From Pocillopora damicornis (Eukaryota): a stretch of 64,000 nucleotides of DNA. Within the stretch, counting starts at the first letter, position 1; each line of letters starts with the position of its first letter. The notes beneath the pieces were generated by a model, which saw only the letters and a list, made by a program, of their open reading frames with translations, was not told the DNA's origin and ran no database searches. A program made the translations under genes and the position numbers. Of this stretch, positions 52,280-54,387 are shown in pieces. The stretch is from positions 434,001-498,000 of the forward strand of contig NW_020846280.1 of assembly GCF_003704095.1 (NCBI RefSeq), in the 5' to 3' direction.

Positions 52280-54387
52280 TTAACAATCAATAGGCATGCA
52301 AGTTTGCATTTCTTTGCACACCATGCATGTTGATGAGGCACAGGTCAAGTAACAATATTGATAGGTGGAACAAACAGAGCTGGAGCAAGAACGCTGATGA
52401 ATAGGCTTTCCATTGTCACCTGAAATCCTGTCTGAAACATATTGCAACCATTAACATACAATAATCATGGTGAAGACCAATACAAATTAATTTTGTTTTG
52501 CAAAGCTTTAACTATTACAGTTGAGAGAGAGCAAATGGGATTTGTTGACCAACCATTGGTCAGTTTCTGTGATTGACTTGCTTAAACATTGAGCGAGGTA
52601 CTCAGTAATCAAAACTGATTAACAGTCCAACTGGCTGGTTGAGTAACTTACATTTTTAATGATGGTGTGGCTGGCTGACTAATCCATTGATTGTTCAGTT
52701 GGTTGATTGGTGGACTAGTATATTGACTGATTGACGAATTGCCTGATTGCCTGACTGACTGACTGACTATCTACTCTATTTATTTGACTATGAGCTGAGC
52801 TCATAGGCGGGCCAGCAGACTGACTGATGCCTTCCACCCAATTAAAAAGGCTTATCTTTCAGTATCAAGACTGACTCACAAGTCTCCAGATTAATTCTTT
52901 ATAGTTATATGATTTTTCATTTACCTTCATCAGCAACTGCTGAGATGGAAATGGTATCTTTAGCAGGTTCACTGTGGTAAATAGGAAAACCTTCACACAT
53001 TTTCTTCATGGCGTAGCTAAGATCACCCAGGTCATATATCAACTCTTTAGTTTCCATGGTAATTGTCAATTTCTCCAATGGAAATTCCTTACCATCCATT
53101 GTTGCCTAGAGAAAGGAGAATTTTCAGTGTGACACAAGTAATTTTTTTCTCTTCAATTTTTTCACTTGGTATAAGCCAGAAAATAATCATAGTGAGTATG
53201 TCACCTTTCTAAAGGATTTGGCCATCTTGGTAGGGCGTGGCACTCTGCCAGTGAGCTTTGTCAAAAAGCACATTTGTTTCTGTGGTAAGCTGATCATCAT
53301 CAATTTCTGAAACACATAAAACCGTTTTAGAAATTATTAGGCCAACAATCATCTGGAGTTCTTTTGCTCAACTGATATCAGGAAATACCTGAAAGGAACA
53401 AGTCACTGTAAATCTTCGTCAGAGAAAACGTGCCCAAATGGGTTTACCAGAGGAATGAAGCGCTCGAGGTAACTTCGTAAATTCTTAAAATATTTAATCG
53501 GTCGTTTAGTTTACCTCTTGACCAATCAAGCGCACAACTAAATTCAATCTCATTCAATCGCGTTTTTCCGTGCTTTAAGTAGTTAAGTTGTTTTTACTGT
53601 GAGTTGTCATCGGTCACGTGACATTTAACTTCCTTCTGATTGGTCATTGTGATTTCTTTAGTTTTCCTATTATGACACTCAACCAAAAATGAGTTCTATT
53701 TCTATTTTACTGATTTCGATGTCATATCTGGGCAGTGGCTTACCTTACGAAAATCATTAATGATTTCCGCTGCTTCGAGGTCACCTTGCGATGGAACGTG
53801 AAATGTTTCCGTTTTCCCTTTAACATCGATCTCCACAACCTCCTTGAACATTTTGCCTTGATGTTTGATCAGTACTTCGAATGATCTTTTCTTTCCCTGT
53901 GTGGGATGAAACTAATAAAAAAAGAAAAAAATACTTGAAAATGGAATGTTTACCAGGAAAGTCACAAAATATCTCAGTTCTTGTGACTAGACCGTAAAAA
54001 TTCAGCTGTTTGATGGCTCGTGTTCATAAAGAACAGAGATTTGAAATCGGCCTTCCCGGTTGAACGCACTTTTCCAATGGTTTATCAGGTTTTCAATGAA
54101 ATGACATTACTTTTGTCTCCAGTATAAGTTGGCTTGATCATTTTTTGTTATCTTAATGCATAGACTTGATTGTTTTGGAAAAAAAATATCTGACTTTTGA
54201 ATTGTTCTTCAGGCTCAAGACTCACTGTTTCATACGTTGTGAAATTCGTTTTTGTATGATAATGGTGTTCAGGATTTTGAAATTGAAAATTATCTGAACA
54301 TCTAAACTAGTGACTTCAAACGAGCTTACTCACTCGCAAAACTGCTGCACAACAAGAAAGAACTACGAAGCCCACTGAGAATTGCAT
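52280..54387 (-). CDS. Secreted BRICHOS-domain precursor 1 with C-terminal 8-Cys peptide
   Basis: Exons 54387-54334, 53911-53744, 53306-53205, 53105-52925, 52431(or 52419)-52280 join in frame. Signal peptide, TETFHVP...IINDFRKKLMMI...QMCFL and MKKMCEGFPIY (the two BRICHOS Cys), ending SCSSSVCSTYQYCYLTCASSTCMVCKEMQTCMPIDC*. Confidence 0.8.

Follow-up and report, generated by a model that had tools for sequence, protein, structure and literature searches.

Introduction

BRICHOS proproteins are described by a common set of features, namely the BRICHOS domain with a conserved pair of cysteines and a conserved aspartate, a signal or transmembrane stretch, a convertase site, and a two-strand cargo with nested cysteines that binds in a groove (PMC9714404). 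In this study, we analyzed a gene of this kind, referred to as gene C, in a stretch of 64,000 nucleotides from the stony coral Pocillopora damicornis (assembly GCF_003704095.1, contig NW_020846280.1, positions 434,001 to 498,000), hereafter called the window, in which all positions are counted. The last exon of gene C, on the minus strand, encodes a 36-residue cargo with eight cysteines, which is predicted to be a disulfide-laddered single β-hairpin and, judging from its composition, is probably not a lytic antimicrobial peptide (AMP).

Among the described systems, the polychaete BRICHOS AMPs (arenicin, alvinellacin, capitellacin, abarenicin, and HfBRI-25) share with gene C a BRICHOS domain and a basic site, and they also have the signal sequence and the C-terminal β-hairpin closed by disulfides that are predicted for gene C (PMC9714404, PMC13001179). 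However, these peptides are cationic, Arg-rich, membrane-disrupting, and 11-25 amino acids long, whereas the gene C cargo has 36 amino acids, a net charge of -1, and no Arg. Known β-hairpin AMPs are given as peptides of 11-25 amino acids, charged from +1 to +8 and enriched in Arg (PMC13001179). The single amphipathic, disulfide-closed hairpin of that class fits the gene C cargo by prediction, whereas length, charge, and Arg content do not; since length and charge fail, we did not file the cargo among the β-hairpin AMPs.

Two Pocillopora precursors, PaBRI-AMP1 (CAH3125467.1) and PaBRI-AMP2 (XP_058945786.1), have been presented as predicted BRICHOS AMPs; putative PaBRI-AMP1 was enriched in settling larvae, and the antimicrobial role was predicted, not tested (PMC12960093). 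They belong to the same genus and have the same precursor layout as gene C, but their cargos are aromatic, follow KR, and are drawn with two disulfides, whereas the gene C cargo has eight cysteines, is acidic, and is nearly invariant.

Cargos outside the antimicrobial class are also known. Out at first (OAF) is a BRICHOS proprotein with a conserved cargo of no known activity, predicted as an extended hairpin with nested cysteines and four disulfides, as in gene C (PMC9714404). The OAF cargo, however, has 70 amino acids against 36, and the gene C protein matches the BRICHOS family PF04089 directly and gave no match to the OAF Pfam family at E values up to 1. Chondromodulin/tenomodulin and ITM2B/Bri2 likewise have non-antimicrobial C-terminal BRICHOS cargos released by convertases (PMC9714404). 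The Bri2 cargo has 23 amino acids and one disulfide, and no sequence likeness to the gene C cargo was found. The chondromodulin tail has eight cysteines. SCRiPs resemble the gene C cargo as small, Cys-rich, secreted coral peptides, but they have a short pro-part, vicinal cysteines, and a defensin-like fold, whereas gene C has a BRICHOS pro-domain, no vicinal cysteines, and a predicted single hairpin.

BRICHOS genes are numerous in corals (238 domains from 15 species; PMC5299404). PMC13514124 mentions BRICHOS only as an abbreviation, and PMC10745061 contained none of six terms looked for. Six accessions of gene C and its orthologues were absent from the main texts searched, with subscription papers and most supplements outside the scope of that search. 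Two gene C accessions were not found in the part of the PMC12960093 supplements searched, gene C accessions were not in the supplements of PMC12375082, and listings of the literature on BRICHOS with coral, Nematostella, or anionic/cnidaria contained no description of gene C. The precursor layout, a predicted nested four-disulfide cargo (OAF), and Pocillopora cargos as predicted AMPs are known already; gene C and its clade were not found described within the scope of these searches.

Results

Structure of gene C and presence of exon 5 in transcripts

Gene C consists of five exons on the minus strand (54399-54334, 53911-53744, 53306-53205, 53105-52925, and 52431-52280), which join through GT..AG introns into a frame of 669 nt encoding 222 amino acids with no internal stop. 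The RNA evidence was assembled contigs of four runs placed on the locus, and these contigs carry no strand. All four introns were spliced in contigs of run X1. Exon 1 (coding part 54334-54399; joint 53911/54334 in X1 and X14) carries the start codon and a hydrophobic stretch that is likely a signal peptide. Exon 2 (53744-53911; joint 53306/53744 in X1, X8, and X14) encodes the N-terminal BRICHOS strands and the conserved Asp, D71 in the numbering of the protein record P0001. The BRICHOS core with the first Cys, C87, is encoded by exon 3 (53205-53306; PF04089 match, joint in X1), and the rest of the domain with the second Cys, C145, and the start of the linker by exon 4 (52925-53105; RNA joints and domain match). 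The coding part of exon 5 (52280-52431) contains the end of the linker, the basic site, the cargo, and the stop. Its joint to exon 4, 52431/52925, was present in X1 and X14, that is, in two of the four runs and in two studies; the exon, whose splicing the initial annotation had left to be confirmed, is therefore in transcripts. A further table of RNA joints contained no gene C joint among the rows listed.

Two in-frame acceptors had also been annotated for exon 5. Both AGs exist in frame, but only 52431 was used in the contigs and protein records. The second, 12 nt downstream at 52419-52421 on the minus strand, showed no sign of use: it occurred in none of the five joints listed for the four runs and in none of the seven exon-5-bearing records, which does not disprove it. 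The first AATAAA after the stop, a candidate polyadenylation signal, lies at 52131-52136 on the minus strand.

P0001 was the sole full-length protein matched by the exon 5 search. Its cluster has 64 members, and the 15 listed include records of P. damicornis and P. verrucosa. P0003 (RMX40510.1) equals the gene C of the window over 199/199 residues, which marks the sequence as that of a Pocillopora, most likely P. damicornis. The RefSeq model P0004 (XP_027050499.1), on the other hand, reads into intron 4 and ends before exon 5, without the peptide, so that proteomic searches against XP_027050499.1 cannot detect it. The word-index protein searches were thin, returning 1, 2, and 6 proteins.

PF04089 matched P0001, P0002, and P0003 at 44.9-46.9 bits against a cut-off of 25 (gene C: 44.9 bits, E = 1.3e-11), confirming in the same precursor the BRICHOS domain on which the annotation of a BRICHOS cargo depended. 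The conserved Cys pair of the domain is present (C87 and C145), and D71, C87, and C145 were invariant in 13/13 aligned sequences. In the AlphaFold2 model, D71 stands at the end of the predicted strand 66-71, and we infer that it is equivalent to Asp74 of OAF. The best solved-structure match by profile was the Bri2 BRICHOS domain (E = 2.7e-7), which was also the top Foldseek row, a weak one (E = 0.015); residues 176-218 gave no usable match in the ESM Atlas. Of the proprotein features listed in PMC9714404, gene C thus carries the domain, the Cys pair, and the Asp, and the two-strand cargo with nested cysteines by prediction and Cys symmetry.

The 36-residue cargo and its predicted fold

Read on the minus strand from 52429, the frame runs through a short linker, IHQR, and the 36-mer (52283-52390) and ends at the stop codon TAA (52282-52280). 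The cysteines of the cargo occupy positions 2, 7, 13, 17, 22, 25, 31, and 36, and the nested pairs sum to 38, 38, 38, and 39. The net charge is -1, with one Lys, no Arg, only two acidic residues, and three aromatic residues; Ser and Thr are abundant (11/36), and the smallest gap between cysteines is two residues, with no vicinal Cys. The 36-mer, Cys positions, charge, and pair sums given in the initial annotation are all present in the sequence. When the outer cysteines were fixed, equal symmetry was obtained in 7,560 of 1,107,568 placements (0.7%) of the inner six, and in 1,036 of 27,132 (3.8%) when a Cys spacing of at least 3 was applied. The symmetry alone is hence modestly beyond chance. 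The search of the genome with exon 5 gave one match, a Pfam scan of the peptide alone gave none, and comparison of the peptide with PDB sequences gave 0 matches at E values up to 10. The peptide alignment contained no stretch of sufficient conservation for a metagenome scan.

Two AlphaFold2 predictions were compared. With a 39-sequence alignment, the cargo strands were placed at residues 185-197 and 205-217 of P0001, corresponding to 3-15 and 23-35 of the peptide. The peptide alone, with a 17-row alignment, gave the same two strands at a mean predicted local distance difference test score (pLDDT) of 89.6 (85-90 in the five models). The ends of the predicted strands add up to 38, the same sum as for the three outer Cys pairs, and in the predicted register C2/C36, C7/C31, and C13/C25 lie opposite each other and C17/C22 lies in the turn. 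On one predicted face, 8 of 12 positions are hydrophobic (Val, Tyr, Met, and Ile); the other bears the cross-strand pairs C7/C31 and C13/C25, and 2 of its 14 non-Cys positions are hydrophobic. Neither model contained a helix of four or more residues in the cargo, and C13 is within a strand. The peptide model was also compared with the PDB by Foldseek, but the 123 rows at E values up to 10 were uninformative, with none at 0.001 and a best E of 3.1. The proposal of one long β-hairpin with nested cysteines therefore agrees with the predictions, since the same strands appeared in the full-length and peptide-only models, with a pLDDT of about 90 and the register that nested cysteines require.

Cys symmetry was then counted across BRICHOS relatives. 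Searching the 50% cluster representatives returned 99 matches, 76 of them with both BRICHOS cysteines. Twenty-two of these 76 had an even number of at least four cysteines within 45 residues and entered the count; cargos with odd or fewer cysteines and longer tails were excluded. Fourteen of the 22 were mirror-symmetric within 1, against 1.06 expected, a count that overstates independence, as the sequences are related. Mirror-symmetric cargos with 4, 6, 8, and 10 cysteines were found in the family, and several 4-Cys anemone cargos retain exactly the two outer pairs. Because such cargos occur among the relatives, the ladder, as far as sequences can tell, is a habit of the family and not special to gene C. 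The four-rung ladder of the initial annotation hence holds in that the nested cysteines fit the predicted hairpin, but it is not particular to this gene, being family-wide and also predicted for the four-disulfide cargo of OAF (PMC9714404). Among the relatives, P0033 has a ten-Cys cargo with a net charge of -4 and five nested pairs each summing to 41. A second large class of BRICHOS cargos has 55-90 residues and mostly nine cysteines and is not mirror-symmetric (e.g., P0044, P0048, P0077, and P0112).

Cleavage site

The predicted convertase site, K-P-I-H-Q-R, lies at 52391-52408 on the minus strand, and its codon 52394-52396 encodes Q, R, or L depending on the allele. The residue before the last Arg was R in five of the seven exon-5-bearing Pocillopora records, L in one, and Q in one (P0003, like the window); RNA contigs also varied at 52395, with an Arg codon in X1 and a Leu codon in X2, X8, and X14. 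All coral orthologues seen carried an Arg just before the cargo: Stylophora has VRR-G, Desmophyllum RVRR, and Montipora LHRR, and the orthologue P0099 has VFRR. The annotation of IHQR rather than a furin RxxR site is thus correct for the window, but it reflects an allele: five of seven records have IHRR, the other coral orthologues seen have RR, and Desmophyllum has RVRR. The K-X4-R of the window presumably fits the general convertase rule. From the aligned sites, a convertase cut after the Arg preceding the cargo is likely.

Orthologues, charge, and rate of change

A tree was built from the BRICHOS part only, with 32 rows, leaving out 7 near-duplicates or fragments of 39. Pocillopora, Stylophora, Desmophyllum, and Montipora formed one clade with a support of 99/96. 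The eight cargo cysteines were present in all four of these stony-coral genera, so that the Cys conservation for which a comparison of orthologues had been advised was found in Stylophora, Desmophyllum, and Montipora. The cargo charges in the clade were -1, -3, +1, and -3 (Pocillopora, Stylophora, Desmophyllum, and Montipora, respectively), and that of a second Montipora record was -1. No Acropora or Porites orthologue was found among 13 named matches (11 of the 99 and two more), which is no evidence of absence.

Within Pocillopora, the cargo was identical in six of seven records, with one change in the seventh, and exon 5 with its untranslated region differed by 1 letter in 666 in run X12. 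Stylophora shares 27/36 cargo and 68/87 domain residues with P0001, Desmophyllum 20/36 and 39/87, and Montipora 13/32 and 32/87. These identities suggest that cargo and domain change at about the same slow pace in Stylophora and Desmophyllum. Low variation and the single genome match appear not arms-race-like.

RNA cover and the converging EFCAB10-like gene

A spliced EFCAB10-like gene (50048-51810, plus strand; PF24548, E = 5.4e-10; GT..AG joints) converges on gene C. A loose end of contigs at 51768 in all four runs reads as the preceding EFCAB10-like exon, and the EFCAB10-like contigs continue over exon 5 of gene C to 52433 and beyond, unspliced to 53125 in X2. The last exon or 3' untranslated region of the EFCAB10-like gene thus appears to overlap the 3' end of gene C in RNA contigs. 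Unspliced cover extends across gene C as far as about 56240, close to a plus-strand AATAAA at 56237, and a long antisense transcript across gene C is possible.

Since the EFCAB10-like contigs run over exon 5, the deep exon 5 contig and the intron cover are uninformative on the level of gene C or on retention. A 1774-deep contig over 51768-52433 was rejected as gene C expression, as the same contig carries the plus-strand EFCAB10-like splice. Contig depth was likewise rejected as an expression measure: gene B (described below) had joints in the thousands and gene C joints of 2-37, but depth cannot rank genes. Retention of intron 4 was not adopted either, because pre-mRNA, DNA, or the possible antisense transcript may account for the unspliced cover.

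Tandem paralogues and other features of the window

Gene B, a BRICHOS paralogue similar in sequence to CAH3125467.1, lies in tandem 7 kb upstream of gene C on the same strand (61222-63042, minus) and encodes a cationic, aromatic cargo after RVKR. A third tandem BRICHOS gene, gene A, lies about 4 kb beyond the window (L003, 3657-5580, minus). This gene is similar to P0039; its cargo has 32 residues and six cysteines, is Trp/Tyr-rich and cationic, and follows RFRRR. Basic residues number 5-6 and aromatic residues 10-12 in the cargos of genes A and B, against one and three in gene C. The different chemistry that had been noted for the gene C cargo sets it apart from both paralogues, with 1 Lys, 0 Arg, and 3 aromatic residues on the side of gene C.

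Gene B and CAH3125467.1 differed at 10/39 cargo positions and at 7 of about 184 positions before the cargo, as counted by eye, and may be paralogues rather than orthologues. In the RNA contigs of runs X3, X9, and X12, the flanks of the gene B cargo aligned, but the cargo itself was replaced or failed to align at 90%; it has an odd number of cysteines (five) and is hypervariable, and a second acceptor near 61650 was seen in X9 and X12. Exon 2 of gene C matched 10 places in the genome. Further BRICHOS-like exons were found on the genomic contigs labeled C87, C246, C576, C730, C1800, and C3958, in pairs on C1800 and C3958, and in L006 a candidate cargo very rich in Arg follows an acidic linker.

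Several other genes were observed in the window. A Pre-SET and SET domain gene, which we take to be SETMAR-like, lies at 47681-49272 (minus). Between genes B and C, a spliced gene at 56500-59575 (plus), whose first exon had no Pfam match, is presumably GOLPH3/GPP34-like. At 44300-46300 (plus), exons that we take to be those of an astacin-like metalloprotease are followed by a presumably ShK-like, Cys-rich exon (46035-46223). Four paralogous, mostly single-exon genes occupy 6202-10113 (plus), 22861-26730 (minus), 27024-29842 (plus), and 32790-36947 (plus); by eye, they encode proteins of about 1,300 amino acids with a β-helix-like ectodomain, a Cys-rich stalk, and several membrane helices. At 13700-19000, reverse-transcriptase and tyrosine-recombinase-like frames, presumably of a DIRS-type retrotransposon, are interrupted by assembly gaps.

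Discussion

From what is described for the family (PMC9714404), the signal peptide would take the gene C precursor into the endoplasmic reticulum, where the aggregation-prone hairpin would be kept in the BRICHOS groove during formation of its four disulfides. Cutting after the Arg by a proprotein convertase would then release a peptide of roughly 3.95 kDa for secretion, for which a monoisotopic mass near 3,950.4 Da with four disulfides was calculated. The hairpin would then bind an extracellular partner through its flat Tyr/Met/Val/Ile face, with no membrane lysis. As regards processing and fold alone, we hold this account to be very probable. For the complete reading, in which the cargo is a secreted, convertase-released, non-lytic hairpin that binds a target, we consider the chances even. 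Within it, a host-directed ligand or regulator comparable to the OAF or chondromodulin cargos is suggested tentatively, by analogy, and a non-lytic defence peptide that binds microbes would be a somewhat unlikely variant. The initial annotation had suggested that the peptide may not be a membrane-lytic AMP, and the comparison of 36 amino acids, a charge of -1, and no Arg with the 11-25 amino acids and +1 to +8 of the known class bears this out (PMC13001179). Because its chemistry is unlike that of the paralogues, the cargo is probably not a lytic AMP.

Several observations weigh against the target-binding hairpin or parts of it. The alignments for the models were chosen for hairpin-like tails and may favour a hairpin; C17/C22 is outside the predicted strands; and the putative disulfides were read from the predicted register. 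The signal peptide is a prediction from hydropathy, which reaches 2.7 over nine residues, and the Q and L alleles have no dibasic site, so that cleavage may be poor in these. Two cationic, AMP-like paralogues lie in tandem with gene C. Among short cargos of the family (n = 27), 19 have charges of +3 or more and 6 of 0 or less, and the anemone cargos whose Cys frame is similar are cationic (Exaiptasia +6, Actinia +4, and Nematostella +5). The Montipora cargo keeps only 5/24 non-Cys identities and 3/12 positions of the hydrophobic face, a divergence that, at the level of sequence, speaks against strict conservation of a ligand surface.

The alternatives are taken in descending order of probability. 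The freed hairpin might be a structural unit that stacks into β-rich fibres or films in mucus, mesoglea, or the skeletal organic matrix. BRICHOS cargos tend to aggregate (PMC9714404), a near-neutral, Ser/Thr-rich, flat hairpin has little charge repulsion, and the non-cationic clade found is that of stony corals (octocorals and corallimorphs were unsampled). However, the cargo has only two acidic residues, and its β propensity of 1.07 is below those of the two neighbouring cargos (1.22 and 1.27), and we judge this role unlikely.

A conventional membrane-active AMP like those of the neighbours and the polychaetes, active in spite of its charge (by way of divalent cations or against particular microbes, for instance), is rather improbable in our view. 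The precursor layout is that of arenicin-type AMPs (PMC9714404), and the tandem arrangement, the predicted amphipathic hairpin, and the cationic anemone look-alikes all speak for it, but the cargo departs from this class in its length, its charge, and its lack of Arg, and the near-invariant cargo contrasts with the hypervariable one next door.

Alternatively, the BRICHOS domain itself might be the working product, a secreted stress chaperone whose groove the tail plugs until it is cut. BRICHOS genes were enriched among strongly changed genes in heat- and pH-stressed corals (PMC5299404), unspliced intron 4 cover is seen in RNA contigs, and the P0004 model ends before exon 5. However, gene C is not named in the excerpted text of PMC5299404, the unspliced cover may stem from the convergent EFCAB10-like transcript, and the eight cysteines kept from Pocillopora to Montipora suggest that the tail keeps its own fold. 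We regard this explanation as improbable.

A broader proposal, which we offer as a long shot, is that a cationic BRICHOS-AMP cassette was ancestral and was converted in stony corals to a conserved cystine-ladder hairpin without cationic charge. In mucus or at the calcifying interface, this hairpin would self-assemble or bind to matrix or mineral, as a chaperone-gated functional amyloid or a signal tied to skeleton or symbiont control. The tree places the anemone 7-8-Cys clade apart without resolving its link to the coral clade, and it therefore does not show that the charge was reversed when stony corals arose.

A venom toxin, such as an ion-channel ligand, is very improbable. The peptide is small, disulfide-rich, secreted, and cnidarian, and corals do have small Cys-rich neurotoxins, the SCRiPs (PMC10892658). 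However, the peptide has no Pfam or PDB sequence match and no vicinal cysteines, and the gene shows a single genome match with little variation. We know of no BRICHOS pro-domain on a cnidarian toxin, and among the ligand, toxin, and structural roles initially suggested, nothing found favours the toxin. We give hardly any credit to a compact non-ladder fold, for example one with a helix and a sheet as in defensins, built around the CxxxC at 13-17. In the defensin-like type, a helix bearing CxxxC packs on a sheet. A defensin-like BRICHOS cargo is reported from Arenicola, the inner spacing is uneven (3 versus 2), and the S-S bonds are predicted, but neither cargo model contains a helix of four or more residues, and cysteines are gained and lost in pairs across the family.

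If the target-binding hairpin is correct in its fold, the long natural four-rung hairpin would be a possible stable scaffold. The two Pocillopora BRICHOS cargos in print are assumed to be AMPs, whereas gene C defines a stony-coral clade with a cargo that breaks the AMP rules. Its slow-changing cargo, beside a fast-changing paralogue, would provide a small, synthesisable test of non-antimicrobial BRICHOS cargos in early-branching animals.

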